Below are positions 3,726 to 10,166 of a DNA stretch of 33,322 nucleotides, piece after piece. The position numbers were made by a program, and so were the translations under genes. Location of the stretch: the NCBI GenBank assembly GCA_043822165.1, contig JBDRCA010000163.1, forward strand, positions 1 through 33,322, given 5' to 3'. The notes under the pieces were generated by a model. It ran no database searches. It had not been told where the DNA came from and was given only the letters and a program-made list of their open reading frames with translations. This DNA is from Candidatus Altiarchaeota archaeon. Lineage in GTDB: Archaea > Altiarchaeota > Altiarchaeia > IMC4 > SCGC-AAA252-I15. Numbering within the stretch: the stretch's first letter is position 1; every line of letters starts with the position of its first letter.

Positions 3726-3830
3726 ATGTGCTCTGAAGGCGAAGACGGGAAAGGCAAGGAAAAAAAGTTGAGCAAAAAGGACGAGGAGGAGATTAAGAGG
3801 CGTCTTCGGGCTCTGGGTTACCTAGACTGA
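3726..3830 (+). CDS. 34-aa micro-ORF consisting of an acidic/basic linker plus the tail RLRALGYLD
   Basis: ATG about 27-36 nt downstream of TATA-like tatataaaata. Its C-terminal peptide is shared at amino-acid level, with different codons, with the next two ORFs. Confidence 0.35.
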   Translation: MCSEGEDGKGKEKKLSKKDEEEIKRRLRALGYLD

Positions 3831-3862
3831 TTTAAATACTTTTAATTATATTTAATTAAGAG

Positions 3863-4072
3863 ATGTCTTCTGAGAAAACCAGGTACACTACGGTCAGCAT
3901 CCCCATAGAGCTTGCCGAAAAGGCTAAAAAACAAATCAAGGGCACTGGCTTCAAGAATCTGTCAGACTACGTCGCATACCTTCTCCGCGAAATAGTCGCA
4001 TCTCGCAGAGACTGGGATGAAGGCGACCTGGAAAAAGTAAAGGAGAGACTAAGAGCACTCGGCTACCTGTAA
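3863..4072 (+). CDS. Ribbon-helix-helix (CopG-like) small DNA-binding protein with C-terminal RLRALGYL tail
   Basis: TTVSIPIELAEKAKKQIK...NLSDYVAYLLREIV fits a strand-helix-helix RHH pattern. It ends 1 nt before cysD and has an AT-rich TATA-like region upstream. Confidence 0.7.
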   Translation: MSSEKTRYTTVSIPIELAEKAKKQIKGTGFKNLSDYVAYLLREIVASRRDWDEGDLEKVKERLRALGYL

Positions 4073-4073
4073 A

Positions 4074-4880
4074 ATGGACTACTTGGACGAACTGGAGAGC
4101 AACAGCATCTATGTCATGCGGGAGGCATACAAAAAGTTCAGGAAGCTTGCGATGCTCTGGAGTGTGGGAAAGGATTCGACAACCCTCATATGCCTTGCTA
4201 GGAAGGCTTTTTACGGGAGAGTGCCTTTTCCCGTAATCCACATAGACACGGGGAGGAAGTTCAGGGAAATGTACGAGTTCCGGGACCGCTGCGTAAGAGA
4301 ATGGGATTTGAAGCTTATAGTGGCCTGCAAAAAAGACGCAGACGAGCGCGGCATCACGCCTAAAGACAAGATAGCGTGCTGCGACTACCGCAAAACTCAG
4401 GCGCTAAAAGACGCCATTTCAGAGCACGGGTTCGAAGCCTTGATTCTAGGGATACGCCGCGACGAACACGGGGTGCGAGCCAAGGAGCGGGTTGTTAGCC
4501 CCAGGGACAAGGATTTTTCCTGGAACTACAAGGATCAGGCGCCGGAGCTTTGGAACCAGTACAAGACTAAAAGGGAGGGCGAGCAACACCTCCGGATACA
4601 CCCGCTTCTTGCCTGGACGGAGCAAGACGTGTGGCGCTACATAAAGCGTGAAAACCTCCCCGTGAATCCTCTTTATTTTTCAGGCGCCAGAGAGCGCGGG
4701 AAACGATACAGGAGCCTGGGATGCGAGTGCTGCACGAATCCTGTGGAGAGCGCCGCGAAAACAGTGGACGAAATAATAGCGGAAATAGAGTCCTCCCGGC
4801 AATCCGAGCGCTCTGGGCGCGCCCAAGACAAGGAGACCTCAGATGCCATGCAAAAATTGAGGGCGTTGGGGTACATGTGA
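4074..4880 (+). CDS. cysD: Sulfate adenylyltransferase subunit 2 (CysD)
   Basis: PP-loop SVGKDS, LARKAFY...PFPV.H.DTG.KFREMYEFRD, RRDE...RAKER, WTEQDVW. It is close to E. coli CysD along the whole length and is followed by cysN. Confidence 0.9.
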   Translation: MDYLDELESNSIYVMREAYKKFRKLAMLWSVGKDSTTLICLARKAFYGRVPFPVIHIDTGRKFREMYEFRDRCVREWDLKLIVACKKDADERGITPKDKIACCDYRKTQALKDAISEHGFEALILGIRRDEHGVRAKERVVSPRDKDFSWNYKDQAPELWNQYKTKREGEQHLRIHPLLAWTEQDVWRYIKRENLPVNPLYFSGARERGKRYRSLGCECCTNPVESAAKTVDEIIAEIESSRQSERSGRAQDKETSDAMQKLRALGYM

Positions 4881-4882
4881 GG

Positions 4883-6148
4883 ATGGAGAATCTCAAGCTT
4901 GTGATTGTAGGCCACGTCGACCACGGCAAGTCGACGCTTATAGGGCGGCTATTCTACGATACCGGAAGCCTTCCCGATGGGAAGGTCCAGGAGATACGCG
5001 AAATATGTGCGGCGCTTGGAAGAGACTTTGAGTTCGGCTTCGTAATGGACAATCTCTCAGAGGAGAGGGACCAGAGCATAACCATCGATACTGCCCAGAA
5101 GTTTTTCAAAACCGGGAAGCGCAGATACACGATAATTGATGCGCCAGGGCACGTCGAATTCATTAAAAACATGATTACCGGGGCAAGCCAGGCCGACGCC
5201 GCAATACTAATCGTGGACGTTCAGGAGGGGGTGCGCGAGCAGACCCGCCGACACGCATACATTCTCGGAATGCTTGGTTTGAGCCAGGTTATAGTCTGCA
5301 TCAACAAGATGGACAAGGCAGATTACGCGGAAGACCGTTTCGACGAGGTCGCGGGGAAGCTATCAGCATTCCTTGATGAAATAAACATTAAGCCCTACTA
5401 CATTATCCCTGCTTGCGCAAAAGACGGGGACAACATAGCGGAAAAATCCGGAAAAATACCCTGGTACACCGGCCCCACAATACTTGCTGCCCTTGACCAG
5501 TTCAAACTATCAACACCCCCAAAAAACAAGCTCCTCAGGTTCCCAGTCCAAGACGTCTACAAGTTCGACGAAAAAAGGATTATCACAGGCAGGATAACAA
5601 GCGGGACAATAAGACCCGGAGAGGAAATAATGGTGCTCCCAAGCGGGGAGAAAACCAAGGTAAACTCAATCGAGCAGTGGCAGTCAGACAAAAAGAACCA
5701 GTTCGGGCGCGGAAAATACTATCATCCATCATCGGCCGGAGCAGGCAAAAGCAGCGGAGTAATGCTTGAAGAAAAACTCTTCGTTGACAGAGGAGACGTG
5801 ATAGTCTCCCCGGCAGATGCGCCCAGGGTCGCCGACTCGTTTAAGGCTCACGTCTTCTGGCTCGACAAAAAACCATATTCATCCGGCGAGCGGCTGACGT
5901 TCAAGTGCGCGACCCAGGAAGTCATGTGCGAAATAGAGAAAATAGAAAAAATCATCGATTCATCAACGCTTAAAACCATCTCCGAGAACGCAAAGGAAAT
6001 CAAAAACAGGGAAGTCGCAGACATAACCTTAAAGACCGCGAAACCCGTGGTAATCGAAAACTTCAATAAAACGCCCGAACTCGGCCGCTTCGTCTTGGAG
6101 CGCGCAGACACGTGCGCCGGGGGAATCATAACGGAGGCAAACCTGTGA
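4883..6148 (+). CDS. cysN: Sulfate adenylyltransferase subunit 1 GTPase (CysN), without a fused APS kinase domain
   Basis: G1 GHVDHGKST, G3 DAPGH, G4 NKMD, EF-Tu-like beta-barrel domains. ATG at 4883 was chosen over the upstream extension to 4721, which overlaps cysD. Confidence 0.9.
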   Translation: MENLKLVIVGHVDHGKSTLIGRLFYDTGSLPDGKVQEIREICAALGRDFEFGFVMDNLSEERDQSITIDTAQKFFKTGKRRYTIIDAPGHVEFIKNMITGASQADAAILIVDVQEGVREQTRRHAYILGMLGLSQVIVCINKMDKADYAEDRFDEVAGKLSAFLDEINIKPYYIIPACAKDGDNIAEKSGKIPWYTGPTILAALDQFKLSTPPKNKLLRFPVQDVYKFDEKRIITGRITSGTIRPGEEIMVLPSGEKTKVNSIEQWQSDKKNQFGRGKYYHPSSAGAGKSSGVMLEEKLFVDRGDVIVSPADAPRVADSFKAHVFWLDKKPYSSGERLTFKCATQEVMCEIEKIEKIIDSSTLKTISENAKEIKNREVADITLKTAKPVVIENFNKTPELGRFVLERADTCAGGIITEANL

Positions 6149-6873
6149 TAACCGTAATCGCCATAGACGCGCTCGAATACTTGCTCGTCGAAGAATACGG
6201 CAACAAAAACCTCAAACAAGCATCATACGGCAAAACAGACATAACAGAGTTCAGGGAGCCACGAACAATGGTCCTGTGGAGCTCGTTTATGACAGGCGCA
6301 AACAAGGAAAAAGAAGTGCTAGCTAAAGGCGACAAGGAAATGTGGAACATTCGTTGGCCAATAGAAGATACTTTTTTCTCTGGATTCGAGAACCCGAAGA
6401 TAATAGATTTGCCGGGATTAAACTACGACACTAAAGTACACGACAAATCAAGAAGGCTTCTAAAGGAATTCTTCGACGCAGAAGAAGCCGGAGAAAAAGA
6501 GAAAAAAAGAAAAGAATATAATGAAGACGCATTCAGGCACCACCGAAACGTCAAGAAAGAATTCCTCGCCTCTTTAACCGGAGACTACGACTTCCTGCTG
6601 GGCTACTTCTGCCTAACAGACGTAGTCGGCCACCTAAACTTCGGAAACAAGACCATGATGAAACTCATACACCAAGACCTTGACGAAACAGCCGGAAAAA
6701 CAACGGAAAAATCAGACAAAACCATAATACTCTCAGACCACGGCATGAAAGCAATCGGAGCATTCGGAGACCACAGCAAATACGGATACTGGAGTACAAG
6801 CTGGAAACAAAACCTGAAAAAACCGAAGATAACAGACTTCAAGGAAATAATACTCAAACTAAAGAACCAATAA
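6145..6873 (+). CDS. Minimal alkaline-phosphatase-superfamily protein (type I phosphodiesterase / nucleotide pyrophosphatase-like), ~242 aa
   Basis: All core metal/nucleophile motifs are recognisable: VIAIDALEY, PRTMVLWSSFMTG (Thr nucleophile position), TDVVGH, LSDHGM, FGDHS. The GTG start overlaps the cysN stop (GTGA), with GGAGG 7 nt upstream. Confidence 0.7.
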   Translation: MITVIAIDALEYLLVEEYGNKNLKQASYGKTDITEFREPRTMVLWSSFMTGANKEKEVLAKGDKEMWNIRWPIEDTFFSGFENPKIIDLPGLNYDTKVHDKSRRLLKEFFDAEEAGEKEKKRKEYNEDAFRHHRNVKKEFLASLTGDYDFLLGYFCLTDVVGHLNFGNKTMMKLIHQDLDETAGKTTEKSDKTIILSDHGMKAIGAFGDHSKYGYWSTSWKQNLKKPKITDFKEIILKLKNQ

Positions 6874-7969
6874 CCTCCTCAACAGACTCGCAAACCGTAT
6901 TGACCTGTTTATCAGTCAAGGCAAGCCCGCTAGGAAGATAAAAACCATACCTGGAGATGTGCTCCGTAACAGGATAGGATTCACCGTCAAACAAACCCAA
7001 ATCTCGAAGGCACGGTTGCTGGTGGAGGCCTATGAAGAAGGAGCGCGTTCCAACTCCTTTCTCTTTGAGGAGGTTCATCATCTCTTCTGCGGTGACGCCG
7101 AGTTTCTCGTCCAGTTCCACGGTATACATCCAGTAGACGTTTTTAGCCCATTTTTTCTCTACCGGCAGTTTTAATCCGTCAATCCTTGAAAGACGCTTAG
7201 TGTACTCTGCAGCGTTTTTTCTTTTCATCTCTATGAACTTGTCAATGCATTCAAGCTGCGCCAACCCGACCGCAGCCTGCAGGTTAGTCATCCTGAAGTT
7301 GTAGCCCAATTCTTTATGTAAGAATCTTTTCTCCGGGTTGTGGGCGAGATTCCTGTAAGAGCGCGCACGTTCGGCGGCTTCACAGTCGTTTGTCACTACC
7401 ATCCCTCCTTCCCCTGTCGTTACTATCTTATTCGCGTAAAAGCTGAATGAGCCAACATCCCCGATTCCTCCACAGCGTTTGCCCTTGTACTCTGCCCCGT
7501 GCACTTCTGCGGCATCCTCAACGACCTTCAAGCCATGATTTCGCGCAACCTTAAGTAGTGGGTCCATGTTTACAGGGTGTCCGTACATGTGAACAGGCAT
7601 GACAGCCTTCGTCTTCTCGGTTATTTTACCTTCGACTTGGGAGACGTCCATGTTGTATGTTTCAGATTCTACGTCAACGAGCACGGGCGTTGCGCCAACA
7701 CGCAGTGCCGCCAGCGCACAAGAGATTATCGTAAAAGACGGCATAATGACTTCATCATCTCTTGTGACTCCAGCAGCCGCCAGAGAAACCTCGAGTGCCG
7801 CCGTTCCGTTGCAGACTGCTACACCATGTTCGCACCCTACGTAGTGTGCGAATTCATCCTCGAATTTTTTTACGAACGGACCCTCAGAGGAAATCCAACC
7901 AGTATCTATGCACTCGATTAAATACTTTTTCTCGTTCCCGCAAAACAAAGGCTCATTTACCGGAATCAT
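6854..7969 (-). CDS. DegT/DnrJ/EryC1/StrS-family PLP-dependent sugar aminotransferase (perosamine-synthase-like)
   Basis: WISSEGPFVKKFE...AVCNGTAALE N-terminal pattern, FSFYANKIVTTGEGGM (PLP-Lys region), NFRMTNLQAA. ATG at 7969 was preferred to the GTG at 7981. Confidence 0.85.
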   Translation of the reverse strand: MIPVNEPLFCGNEKKYLIECIDTGWISSEGPFVKKFEDEFAHYVGCEHGVAVCNGTAALEVSLAAAGVTRDDEVIMPSFTIISCALAALRVGATPVLVDVESETYNMDVSQVEGKITEKTKAVMPVHMYGHPVNMDPLLKVARNHGLKVVEDAAEVHGAEYKGKRCGGIGDVGSFSFYANKIVTTGEGGMVVTNDCEAAERARSYRNLAHNPEKRFLHKELGYNFRMTNLQAAVGLAQLECIDKFIEMKRKNAAEYTKRLSRIDGLKLPVEKKWAKNVYWMYTVELDEKLGVTAEEMMNLLKEKGVGTRSFFIGLHQQPCLRDLGLFDGESYPVTEHISRYGFYLPSGLALTDKQVNTVCESVEEVIGSLV

Positions 7970-7971
7970 AG

Positions 7972-8373
7972 TCAAAACCACTCCTTGTCGTCTACTCCGG
8001 CGTACGGTCCCTGCTTGACCTCAATGATTTCTGTTTCATCGAGGAATTCAAACCCGTGGCCGCCTGAAACCAAGATGATGACATCCCCCCTTCTTAAGAC
8101 TCTGTCGCAGACGAAAGTTTTGTCGTCATCATACAATCTAACTTTAACCTTGCCCTTCCTGACAAAAAGAACCTCCTGAGTCAACGTAATAGTCCTCTCA
8201 TTTGGTTTATGACAGTGAGCTTTGATGACATCCCCTTTATCCTGACGTATGAATCCAAGCTGTTGAGAGTAATCGTCTGGCGTGAAAAAACGCGTACCAT
8301 GGCAAGAAAAATCAGACGATATTATGATTGCGAAAGTCTTCTCCCCCTTCTTTATCTCTTCAAAGTCAGCCAT
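7972..8373 (-). CDS. Cupin-fold protein of polysaccharide loci (WbuC/WxcM/FdtA-like)
   Basis: About 133 aa with a beta-barrel-type pattern: AHCHKP...EVLFVRKGKVKV...GGHGFEF...IEVKQGPY. GAGGT SD-like sequence 4 nt before the ATG at 8373. Co-oriented and contiguous with the aminotransferase. Confidence 0.6.
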   Translation of the reverse strand: MADFEEIKKGEKTFAIIISSDFSCHGTRFFTPDDYSQQLGFIRQDKGDVIKAHCHKPNERTITLTQEVLFVRKGKVKVRLYDDDKTFVCDRVLRRGDVIILVSGGHGFEFLDETEIIEVKQGPYAGVDDKEWF

Positions 8374-8445
8374 CACAACCTCAAATAATTACTACTAATT
8401 CAACTTAAATAGCACTATACTTTAAGTATAAACTCAACCGTTGAA

Positions 8446-9078
8446 ATGGATCAAAAGGTTTACGCGGACGTGAGGTTGGGTGTTAATCCGTGGATTGGGG
8501 AATACGTGGTTTTGGGCGTTATTCCCTCAAAGATGGAGAAACCCTCCGAGACAGTAATCGGGGATAACGCGGTCATCCGCTCCCACACCGTTATTTACGC
8601 AGGCAACAAAATCGGCGACAATTTCCAGACCGGCCACCACACTCTCATCCGGGAGAACAACGTAATCGGCGATGACGTGAGCATTGGTTCCAGCTCTGAT
8701 GTTGCATTTAACGTGAAAATCGGCGACAAAGTGCGCATCCACTCCAACGTCTTCATACCAGAATACTCTGTTCTCGAGGATGCGTGCTGGATCGGGCCGA
8801 ACACGGTTCTCACTAACGCGCTTCATCCGCAGTGTCCTGACGTGAAAGATTGTCTTAAGGGGCCGACCATTAAATCGGGCGCGAAGATTGGCGCGAACTC
8901 GACGATTCTGCCGTGCGTCGTCGTCGGCAGAAACTGTCTCGTCGGAGCCGGCTCAGTGGTCACGAAGGATGTGCCGGATGGGGCGGTCGTAGTCGGGAAT
9001 CCTGCGAAAATCGTCAAGAAAACGGCTGAAATATCCTGCCGATTCGGCAGGCGCAAAGGCCCATACTCCATAAAATGA
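8446..9078 (+). CDS. Left-handed beta-helix (hexapeptide-repeat) sugar N-acetyltransferase
   Basis: Repeated [LIV]-G-x4 hexapeptides (IGDNAVI, IGDNFQT, IGDDVSI, IGDKVRI, IGANSTI, VGAGSVV), C-terminal GNPAKIV. ATGA overlap with the next gene. Confidence 0.8.
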
Positions 9079-10166
9079 ATGTGCCATTCGTTGACTTGAA
9101 GCGCCAGTACGAGTCGATAAGAGACGAAGTAGACACTGCGATACAAAGGATACTTGACACCACGTCATTTATCGGCGGAAAAGAGTTATCCTCCTTCGAG
9201 GAAGAATTCGCATCCTTCTGCAAGGCCCACCACACCGTTGGAGTATCATCTGGAACATCGGCGCTCCAGCTTGCGCTAATAGCCCACGGAGTAGGCGGGG
9301 GAGACGAGGTCGTGACGGTATCGCATACCTTCACAGCGACCGCAGAGGCAATAGTCAATGTTGGGGCCAGACCCGTTTTCACGGATGTCGACGAAAAGAC
9401 GGGGAACATGGACGCAGGGAAACTGGAAGATGCGATTACTGCTAAAACAAAGGTTGTTCTCCCAGTCCACCTTTACGGCCAGCCTGCGGACCTGGACCAG
9501 ATAACCGAGGTTGCCGAGGAAAAGGGTTTGGTCGTAATCGAGGACGCGGCCCAGGCGCACGCAGCGGAATACAAGGGACGAAGAATCGGTTCCGTCTCAA
9601 CCACGTGCTTTAGCTTTTACCCCGGGAAAAACCTGGGCGCATACGGGGACGCGGGAGCAGTCACCACAAACGACGAAGAAATCGCAGACAAAATTAGGAT
9701 GCTTCGCGACCACGGCAGAACCGAAAAATACGTACACGAAAAAGTCGGATTCAATGAGCGAATGGACGCGCTCCAGGCTGCGGTACTAAAAGTAAAGCTC
9801 ACTCACCTCGAAGAGTGGACTGAGGCGAGGAGAAAGAACGCGGGACTTTACGGCAGGCTTCTGCGCGATACTTGCGTTGAGGCGCCGTTTGAGGCGGATT
9901 ACGCGCGACACGTATATCATCTCTACGTCGTACAGGCTGATGACCGGGACGGACTGCGCGAGCACCTTGAGAAAGCCGGTGTTGCAACTGGGATTCATTA
10001 TCCTCTCCCTCTTCACCTACAGCCCGCTTACTCGAGTCTCGGATACGCTAAAGGAGATTTCCCGGTAACTGAGCGGCTAACGGAAAGGATTCTTTCTCTC
10101 CCAATGTTTCCCGAGCTTAAGAAAGAGGAATTAGAGTACGTGTGCGAGAAGATTGGGGAGTTCTAG
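9075..10166 (+). CDS. DegT/DnrJ/EryC1/StrS-family sugar aminotransferase (WbpE/FdtB-like)
   Basis: [10 protein letters not shown]...FIGGKE...[44 protein letters not shown]. Confidence 0.85.

Follow-up and report, generated by a model that had tools for sequence, protein, structure and literature searches.

A C-terminal tail shared by a putative ribbon-helix-helix regulator, a 34-residue micro-protein and CysD in an archaeal sulfate-activation operon

We analyzed a stretch of 33,322 nt from a Candidatus Altiarchaeota archaeon (contig JBDRCA010000163.1 of assembly GCA_043822165.1; called the window in the following), in which three consecutive plus-strand open reading frames (ORFs) end with nearly the same peptide. 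These are a micro-ORF, the gene of a small regulator of the putative ribbon-helix-helix (RHH) type, named RHH-1 here, and cysD. The positions of these genes, of their neighbors and of the candidate operator sites are listed in Table 1. An initial annotation of the window had noticed the common tail and had proposed that it docks on CysN, the GTPase subunit of the sulfate-activating enzyme, or on another partner.

Table 1. Genes and candidate regulatory sites of the RHH-cysDN region and a second operator-like site in the window
Feature	Position	Strand	Basis and details
Micro-ORF, 34 aa, MCSEGEDGKGKEKKLSKKDEEEIKRRLRALGYLD, putative tail-only derivative of RHH-2	3726..3830	+	module LSKKDEEEIKRRLRALGYLD coded by 3768-3827; syntenic 34-aa homologs
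Putative promoter/operator of the RHH-cysDN operon	3831..3858	+	TATA-like TTTAAATA at 3831-3838; hexamers TAAATA 3833-3838, TAATTA 3843-3848, TAATTA 3853-3858
Putative RHH-1 regulator, 69 aa	3863..4072	+	RHH domain ~8-46, short charged linker, tail helix 56-66 (coded by 4028-4069)
cysD, sulfate adenylyltransferase subunit 2, short archaeal clade	4074..4880	+	PRK05253, PF01507, Foldseek, homolog tails
cysN, EF-1alpha-like GTPase subunit without fused APS kinase	4883..6148	+	profile matches; syntenic with short cysD
Phosphodiest-like ORF (alkaline-phosphatase superfamily), 253 aa, last conserved gene of the operon type	6112..6873	+	PF01663, 25.3 bits
Second operator-like site TAATTACTACTAATTC, 1 mismatch	8386..8401	+	only other double-site match in the window, 0.04 expected

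Three tails of the same sequence

The micro-ORF ends with cgt ctt cgg gct ctg ggt tac cta gac tga, which is translated to RLRALGYLD before the stop (tail coded by 3801-3827), and the C-terminus of its product reads ..IKRRLRALGYLD. The RHH-1 gene ends with aga cta aga gca ctc ggc tac ctg taa (RLRALGYL in the context ..VKERLRALGYL; tail coded by 4046-4069), and cysD ends with aaa ttg agg gcg ttg ggg tac atg tga (KLRALGYM in the context ..MQKLRALGYM; tail coded by 4854-4877). The shared peptide reported in the initial annotation is therefore present in the window sequence. As was also claimed there, each of the five codons for L-R-A-L-G differs in all three copies. The conservation is at the peptide level and not due to a recent DNA duplication. 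Homologs of each of the three proteins keep the respective tail.

When the ORFs in the six frames of the window were inspected down to a length of 20 aa, only these three had LGY[ILMVF] followed by 0-2 residues as their ending. We also compared the 1,512 called proteins of the window and 166 related loci. The initial annotation had asked whether RHH neighbors of cysD in relatives carry the tail, and the motif was present in all RHH proteins (87/87). It was also found in 18 of 80 CysD proteins and in 12 of 68 APS (adenosine 5'-phosphosulfate) kinases, and in none of the remaining 1,277 proteins of these loci (0/1,277). The occurrence of the three tails is real and not due to chance. The APS kinase ending ..KLKELGYI was considered as a third member of the pathway carrying the tail. 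It was strict in only 6 of 68 proteins and drifts to ..KKNII and similar endings, and we treated this likeness as a structural coincidence.

The assignment of CysD was clear. The window protein scored 351 bits against PRK05253 (cut-off 195) and matched PF01507 at 8e-48, it contains the SVGKDS motif, and its structural model matched 1zun_A in Foldseek with an E value of 3e-18. It thus combines a PAPS_reduct/PP-loop fold above the curated cut-off with an adjoining CysN GTPase gene, as is the case for CysD proteins. The cysN gene starts 3 nt past the cysD stop codon, and cysN follows the short cysD in most related loci with downstream sequence at hand. The CysN protein of the window scored equally well against EF-1alpha and CysN models.

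According to the initial annotation a basic, G-Y-hydrophobic extreme C-terminus is a trait of the CysD family, and the comparison of homologs supported this. G[YF][ILMVF] is terminal in 70 of 80 CysDs, with ..ELKKRQGYF as the E. coli-type end. The window tail aligns with ..GSMEEKKRQGYF of CysD from P. syringae (PDB 1ZUN), and its KLRALGYM has the pattern basic-x-x-G-Y-(F/M). Bacterial-type CysDs end with ..SMExKKxEGYF, the short archaeal clade ends with M(Q/E)xLR(A/S/T)LGY(M/F) in 115 of the 120 best homologs, and the sister group of this clade ends with ..FERLRxxGYM. The G-Y-hydrophobic terminus is thus common to the window protein and the family, whereas K-K-x-E is replaced by L-R-(A/S)-L in the short archaeal clade. 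The CysD tail is a separate ancestral feature of CysD, with (K/R)xxGY(F/M) at the extreme C-terminus, whose letters happen to be LRALGYM in the short archaeal clade.

In the AlphaFold2 (AF2) monomer model of the window CysD the last 28 residues (241-268) had predicted local distance difference test (pLDDT) values of 53-65, and residues 256-264 formed a helix. The only solved complex of CysN and CysD models 204 of the 325 CysD residues (1zun_A), and our alignment with it corresponds to the catalytic core. From this, the C-terminal part of CysD including the tail is probably not ordered on CysN. The tail is probably a flexible lid or switch element. We found no description of a function of the CysD C-terminus in the literature searched. 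One related cysD carries an intein (L167:4382-6406); its 674-aa product comprises PAPS_reduct, Intein_splicing and LAGLIDADG domains and ends with ..MQRLRALGYM.

An RHH-type family, its operator and its operons

The initial annotation had recognized an RHH-like N-terminus in the product of 3863-4072. Proteins of the RHH superfamily have an N-terminal beta-strand and two helices with a G-x-(S/T/N) turn between them, in all ~45 residues, and they are obligate dimers held by an antiparallel beta-ribbon. In the AF2 monomer model an extended N-terminal segment (YTTVSIP) is followed by helices at residues 15-25, 33-46 and 56-66, with a KGTGF turn between the first two. Residues 10-49 of the family profile matched the RHH domain of P. 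horikoshii NikR (2bj1) weakly (E 0.044), the NCBIfam NikR model matched RHH-1 below its cut-off (E 0.0064), and Pfam RHH_1 matched 4 of 41 family members weakly. Relatives of RHH-1 are named Arc/MetJ-type or CopG family in two sources. A Foldseek search of the model against PDB gave no significant match and none covering the tail, and the best fold matches, which were non-significant, were RHH domains of ParD proteins. No family in Pfam or NCBIfam covers RHH-1, the micro-ORF product or RHH-2, a second RHH protein of related loci. These indications are weak and below formal thresholds, but they are consistent with an RHH fold and support the earlier assignment as a putative RHH-type protein.

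We searched the family profile against 1.84 billion cluster representatives (clusters at 50% identity) and obtained 1,704 representatives at E ≤ 1e-3, of which 472 reached E ≤ 1e-10; nearly all had a length of 65-85 aa. By scanning one genome per species, at least 462 RHH loci were found in Thermoplasmatota, Altiarchaeota and Nano-, Micr-, Bathy-, Aig- and Hadarchaeota, and the protein matches also included members from the Asgard groups Lokiarchaeota and Thorarchaeota. In 41 close relatives of RHH-1 the module ..(F/Y)(S/T)KEDEEKVKERLRALGY(L/I)(D/E), also written as (F/Y)(S/T)KEDEEKVKERLRALGYL(D/E), is nearly invariant. L63, L66, G67 and Y68 of RHH-1 are invariant in the alignment, and D55, E57, V59, K60, E61, R62, R64 and A65 are at least 90% conserved. 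Members of the family without a tail look like frameshift or truncation artefacts. Six fusion proteins of ~205-215 aa (P0166, P0180, P0192, P0224, P0256, P0274) were found, most of which have an N-terminal RHH_10/DUF7557-like RHH domain, an unknown domain of ~100 aa and RHH-1 with its tail at the C-terminus. In P0162 (185 aa) three RHH modules are combined with two tails, and one of the tails is internal (..KLRKLGYLWGG..), which implies that a free C-terminus is not needed.

The putative operator stops 4 nt short of the RHH-1 start codon (ATG at 3863), and the TATA-like TTTAAATA at 3831-3838 may represent the TATA box. Upstream of RHH starts the hexamer TAATTA was seen 123 times with 22 expected, and it occurred within 100 nt upstream of the RHH gene in 63 of 67 loci. 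Pairs of TAATTA were spaced by 10, 20, 30 or 40 bp in 102, 61, 36 and 11 cases, nearly all spacings being multiples of 10. There were 1.85 sites per region at RHH promoters compared to 0.11 upstream of other genes of the same loci, and a 10-bp pair was present in 70% of the RHH loci compared to 1% of the control promoters. All matches of the exact TAATTA-N4-TAATTA in 169 loci (46/46) were located directly upstream of an RHH start. RHH-1 would thus have repeated, palindromic sites at its own promoter, as expected of the RHH superfamily, and TAATTA hexamers 10 bp apart in front of the gene suggest an autoregulatory repressor. Regulation of the operon by the RHH protein through the TAATTA array is well supported by these counts. 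As the sites overlap the region from the TATA box to the start codon, we argue that this regulation is presumably repression. The second operator-like site is located in the divergent intergenic region between 7972-8376 on the minus strand and 8446-9078 on the plus strand, among sugar-modification genes, and may be a further target of the regulator.

To see which genes are linked to the regulator, 80 species-level RHH loci from several archaeal phyla were fetched and the genes after RHH were counted. The next gene usually follows within ~10 nt. Sat is the first gene after RHH in about 45 of the 80 loci, and then mostly a DHH phosphoesterase, APS kinase, a sulfotransferase and a Na/sulfate symporter follow. 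The DHH enzyme is of the type demonstrated to be a 3'-phosphoadenosine 5'-phosphate (PAP) phosphatase in Methanothermococcus (PMC10322725). CysD follows RHH in 12 of 80 loci, with CysN called next in most of them, and a Phosphodiest protein follows in about 6 of 80, usually before an APS kinase. Linkage of RHH to operons of these kinds was seen in nearly all of the 80 loci. No enzyme is common to every RHH operon type. Since Sat-, CysD/CysN- and Phosphodiest-type operons are all headed by RHH, we concluded that the family is tied to the pathway and not to CysDN. No toxin family, which would mark a type II toxin-antitoxin system, was found among the genes downstream of RHH in the 80 loci. The 33-kb window contains no homologs of APS kinase, Sat, DHH PAP phosphatase or sulfotransferase, and sulfotransferase genes are also absent from the operons of the window type.

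The Phosphodiest-like ORF of the window overlaps the 3' end of cysN, and a homolog follows cysN in L001, L025, L162, L163, L165 and L167. A larger Phosphodiest-family protein of 450-465 aa recurs before APS kinase in L004, L016, L019, L024, L057 and L073 (~8300-9660) and in L041, L056, L061, L075 and L080 (~6230-7620). In some loci this protein is encoded directly after RHH, with no adjoining ATP sulfurylase gene.

The distribution of operon types bears on the proposed docking of the tail on CysN or the sulfate-activating complex, in which RHH-1 and the micro-protein compete with the CysD tail or join the GTPase and so couple transcription to the state of the enzyme. In favor of it, three near-identical tails are encoded side by side, LR(A/S)LGYM is almost invariant in the short CysD clade, and the CysD tail is not packed confidently in the monomer model, so that binding to a partner is possible. 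The micro-protein is evidence of a function of the tail without a DNA-binding domain. There is also a precedent: the C-terminal tail of the archaeal stalk protein aP1 binds aEF1alpha, aEF2 and aIF5B, and CysN is EF-1alpha-like. Like the RHH tail, the aP1 tail consists of an acidic flexible linker and a short conserved hydrophobic C-terminal helix, and its EF-1alpha-type target belongs to the family of CysN. This parallel is one of arrangement, as the two have no sequence homology and most RHH-bearing operons lack CysN.

However, the RHH tail does not vary in most of the loci, namely the ~45 of 80 of the Sat type, whose operons contain neither CysD nor CysN. The 303-aa CysDs of Thermoplasmatota that are encoded directly after an RHH gene end with ..AMEDRKKEGYF, that is, without LRAL. 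Conversely, the short-clade CysDs of L082-L085 keep the ..LRSLGYM tail with no RHH gene within 1.5-4 kb upstream. The incomplete CysD chain of 1zun_A provides no ordered contact of the tail with CysN. Moreover, the RHH motif is often followed by D/E or is internal, whereas the CysD motif is always at the extreme C-terminus. Docking on CysN or competition with CysD was thus not supported as a general function of the tail, and we consider this explanation quite unlikely. Docking is possible within the window's own lineage of the CysDN type. Independence of the tail from CysN is well supported.

A tail-only protein upstream of the regulator gene

The micro-ORF is located 32 nt upstream of the RHH-1 gene and codes for a linker and the tail module only. 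Homologs of 34 aa are present at the same syntenic place in L165 (P0312, MDDEEKQDKDEEKPLSKEDEEKVKERLRALGYID) and in L167-169 (P0313, MMASDNGKEDEKKGLSKKDEEEIKKRLRALGYLD). The homologs in L165 and L167 support ATG 3726 (34 aa) and not TTG 3717 as start codon. The common gene order is GFO/IDH/MocA, epimerase (minus strand), micro-ORF, RHH, cysD, cysN and Phosphodiest-like gene. A protein search with the micro-ORF product padded with GSG returned one homolog, P0313.

We compared the proportions of non-synonymous (pN) and synonymous (pS) differences between these genomes. For the micro-ORF of the window pN was 0.246 and pS 0.95 against L165, and pN was 0.157 and pS 0.853 against L167. In the tail half (codons 15-34) 11 synonymous and 1 non-synonymous differences were found between the window and L167 (pN 0.021, pS 0.835). 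The pN/pS ratios of the micro-ORF equal those of RHH, CysD and the epimerase. Identity between the window and L167 was 76% for the micro-ORF product and 46% for the adjoining RHH protein. Length, start and stop of the micro-ORF are kept in three genomes despite saturated synonymous sites. This conservation and the coding-type substitutions led us to conclude that the micro-ORF codes for a selected, tail-only protein without a DNA-binding domain. On this comparative evidence the existence of the micro-protein, which the initial annotation had assumed, is well supported.

Other relatives show where the micro-ORF may come from. A full-length RHH-2 gene is present at its position in L001, L163 and L081, and tandem RHH-2 and RHH-1 genes precede cysD in L001, L163/L164 and L081. 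RHH-2 has the pattern V-x-I-P-x-D-L-Y ... F-x-S-V-(D/E)-E-Y-V ... EEEE(I/V)KRRLRALGYL. RHH-2 and RHH-1 occur together in 12 distinct fetched loci, and several TACK loci have both. Two tandem RHH genes before cysD thus appear to be the ancestral arrangement.

The micro-ORF could also be a non-functional remnant of RHH-2 that is kept only as neighbor of the RHH-cysDN promoter. It is located at the RHH-2 position, its window copy is absent from the protein collection, and a remnant of such kind exists in L081. There a hicB/hicA toxin-antitoxin cassette is inserted between RHH-2 and RHH-1 (L081:533-1583), flanked by identical direct repeats of ~40 bp of the RHH-2 3' end, and a start-less tail remnant (..LEKVKARLKSLGYLE before the stop, 1297-1343) was left by the insertion. 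For the micro-ORF, the 34-aa homologs in L165 and L167 with their coding-type substitutions led us to reject a dead relic analogous to the start-less duplicate of L081. A remnant would not be expected to keep 34 aa, start and stop at saturated synonymous divergence, to have a pN/pS like that of the neighboring genes or to be more conserved than the adjoining RHH protein. We therefore regard this explanation as very improbable.

Possible functions of the tail

RHH-1 and RHH-2 carry the tail module without change irrespective of the enzymes encoded downstream, and a variable acidic linker connects this module with the RHH domain. The operator spacing sets successive dimers one helical turn apart. 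Together with the internal copy in P0162 and the function kept by the free 34-mer, this favors a protein-protein contact in trans within the regulator system. We propose a model in which the product of 3863-4072 would bind DNA and regulate, most likely repress, the sulfate-activation operon of which its own gene is the first. The TAATTA hexamers, set at a 10-bp period over the TATA-to-start region (3831-3858), would be occupied by RHH dimers. The C-terminal module, a flexible charged linker and an amphipathic helix ..EDEEKVKERLRALGY(L/I) with a Gly-Tyr cap, would make a protein-protein contact in trans. Most likely neighboring dimers, or RHH-1 and RHH-2, would be linked through the tail to larger assemblies along the phased operator, in the manner of the C-terminal helix of Mnt. 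The 34-aa micro-protein would have originated from the upstream RHH-2 paralog by loss of the DNA-binding domain, with linker and tail kept under purifying selection, and it may act as a tail-only antagonist or modulator that caps the RHH assembly, in a similar way as SinI acts on SinR.

The Mnt repressor of phage P22 consists of an RHH domain, a linker and a C-terminal helix that joins dimers. The likeness of RHH-1 to Mnt, MetJ, CopG and omega comprises the RHH domain with linker and C-terminal helix, operator sites that recur along the same face of the DNA, and control of the own operon. The sequence relation to these proteins is limited to the RHH fold, and the tail is much shorter than the coiled coil of Mnt. 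The TAATTA array with its 10-bp period and the sulfate-activation genes as targets are further differences. RHH antitoxins (ParD, CcdA, RelB) and ParR/ParG also have an N-terminal RHH domain and a flexible C-terminal peptide, which in those systems binds a partner from the same operon. In contrast, no toxin or partition NTPase gene adjoins the RHH genes studied here, and the downstream genes are metabolic enzymes that vary by operon type.

For the micro-protein the nearest parallel is SinI/SinR of Bacillus subtilis. SinI is homologous only to the C-terminal oligomerization helices of SinR, lacks a DNA-binding domain and is encoded directly upstream. The micro-ORF likewise codes for a small tail-only protein directly upstream of a DNA-binding regulator, with only the segment presumed to serve the oligomerization of the repressor, and by analogy an antagonism of higher-order assembly would be expected. 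SinR combines a helix-turn-helix domain with a helical hook, an unrelated fold, whereas the archaeal protein has 34 aa and is derived from RHH-2. No match to SinR or SinI was found in Pfam or PDB, and the DNA-binding domain of RHH-1 is RHH-like. The pair of micro-ORF and RHH is therefore an analogue and not a member of this class.

The data described above show the family membership, the operon linkage, the phased operator, the independence of the RHH and CysD tails and the selection on the micro-ORF. Repression, tail-mediated oligomerization and antagonism by the micro-protein are inferred, and the latter two are the weak links of the model. Several observations speak against it. Repression instead of activation was deduced from the position of the sites only. 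The AF2 model of RHH-1 is a monomer, the tail helix has a moderate pLDDT of ~68, and its 11-16 residues are short for a bundle of the Mnt type. The polar residues K60, E61, R62 and R64 are near-invariant across phyla, which suggests a very specific partner or ligand rather than hydrophobic zippering. Elsewhere the motif was found only in CysD and some APS kinases, both enzymes of sulfate activation, and hhalign aligned the last 41 residues of CysD with helix 2, linker and tail of RHH (probability 51%, P 1.6e-4). Due to this restriction of the motif and the alignment, a functional or historical link to CysD is possible. Altogether we give the whole model, with an RHH repressor, tail-mediated contact between dimers and the micro-protein as antagonist, an about even chance.

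A historical link would not require a common partner. The likeness of the CysD and RHH tails could have originated from a duplication or gene conversion of 3' ends in an ancestor, or from convergence on the helix cap L-x-x-L-G-Y-hydrophobic, and both would be compatible with the model proposed above. Duplication of a 3' end with a tail segment does occur in this type of locus, as seen from the ~40 identical bp around hicBA in L081, and the hhalign alignment of the two families spans 41 residues. Within CysD, LRAL is confined to the clade whose genes usually adjoin RHH genes, and the tail gave weak Pfam hits to helices of POTRA and PG_binding, which shows L..LGY to be a structural micro-motif that recurs. 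However, the DNA similarity between the tails is gone, so that a transfer cannot be demonstrated, and the CysD core pattern basic-x-x-G-Y-hydrophobic is older than the archaeal clade. Furthermore, purifying selection is strong on the tails of both CysD and RHH, which argues that each of them is functional. The RHH and CysD tails are independent of each other. A likeness by historical accident is therefore rather unlikely in our view, but it deserves some weight.

The conserved polar face of the helix would also fit a sensor function. In such a mechanism the basic residues and the invariant tyrosine would bind APS, 3'-phosphoadenosine 5'-phosphosulfate (PAPS), PAP or sulfate, or the tyrosine would be sulfated by the sulfotransferase of the operon, so that a product of the pathway switches the repressor; the CysD tail would be similar as it closes over APS. 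What all operon types have in common is the pathway with its metabolites and not one protein, no other module of the regulator is a candidate for a sensor, the helix is conserved as much on its polar as on its hydrophobic face, and only proteins of the APS/PAPS pathway carry the motif. The C-terminal tails of PAPS/APS reductases are flexible active-site lids, and CysD aligns structurally with that family. On the other hand, a helix of 16 residues alone is unlikely to form a nucleotide site, a tail-only micro-protein under selection is easier to reconcile with competition for a protein surface, and a sulfotransferase gene as required for sulfation is missing from the window-type operons. APS kinase builds its APS pocket from internal loops and without the C-terminus (PMC4373884), so that the tail likeness of this enzyme does not support ligand binding. 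We assign this mechanism a low probability.

In a more far-reaching reading, the (K/R)L(R/K)xLGY-hydrophobic motif would be one element for docking or sensing shared within the sulfate-activation machinery, with the CysD tail lying in the EF-1alpha-type groove of CysN, like the tail of the ribosomal stalk, or over APS and with the repressor and the 34-aa protein mimicking it. The repressor would be titrated by free enzyme or product, at a threshold set by the micro-protein. We consider this improbable as well; if true, it would be a direct physical link of a metabolic enzyme complex to the transcription factor encoded alongside. In any case the resemblance to the CysD tail points attention to the conserved C-terminus of CysD.

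An RHH autoregulator is an already known kind of regulator, and to our knowledge a tail-only paralog under selection beside its regulator is new for archaea. We know of very few archaeal transcription regulators for which pathway, operator and mechanism are defined. Searches of the literature gave no relevant result on the tail motif or on regulation of archaeal ATP sulfurylase by an RHH protein, and we found neither the RHH family with its invariant tail nor its operator or its link to PAPS synthesis in archaea described there. This agrees with the assumption of the initial annotation that the shared tail had not been described before. The family is pan-archaeal and uncharacterized, and it heads operons for sulfate activation and PAPS synthesis whichever ATP sulfurylase is used. 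The TAATTA array with its 10-bp period represents a sharply defined, testable operator, and the micro-protein is a natural tail-only product of 34 residues under strong purifying selection. If the micro-protein indeed antagonizes the repressor, it would correspond in archaea to SinI or the plant microProteins, without being a member of their families, and the locus would provide a compact model of regulation by tail competition.

Apart from the RHH-cysDN region, the window contains two overlapping genes for proteins of 88 aa and 115 aa (2088-2682) between the GFO/IDH/MocA oxidoreductase gene and the epimerase gene. The pair is missing in L165. Syntenic genes of the same size in L167-L169 are annotated as DUF433 and DUF5615/PIN-like, and the window genes would accordingly be a probable toxin-antitoxin pair.

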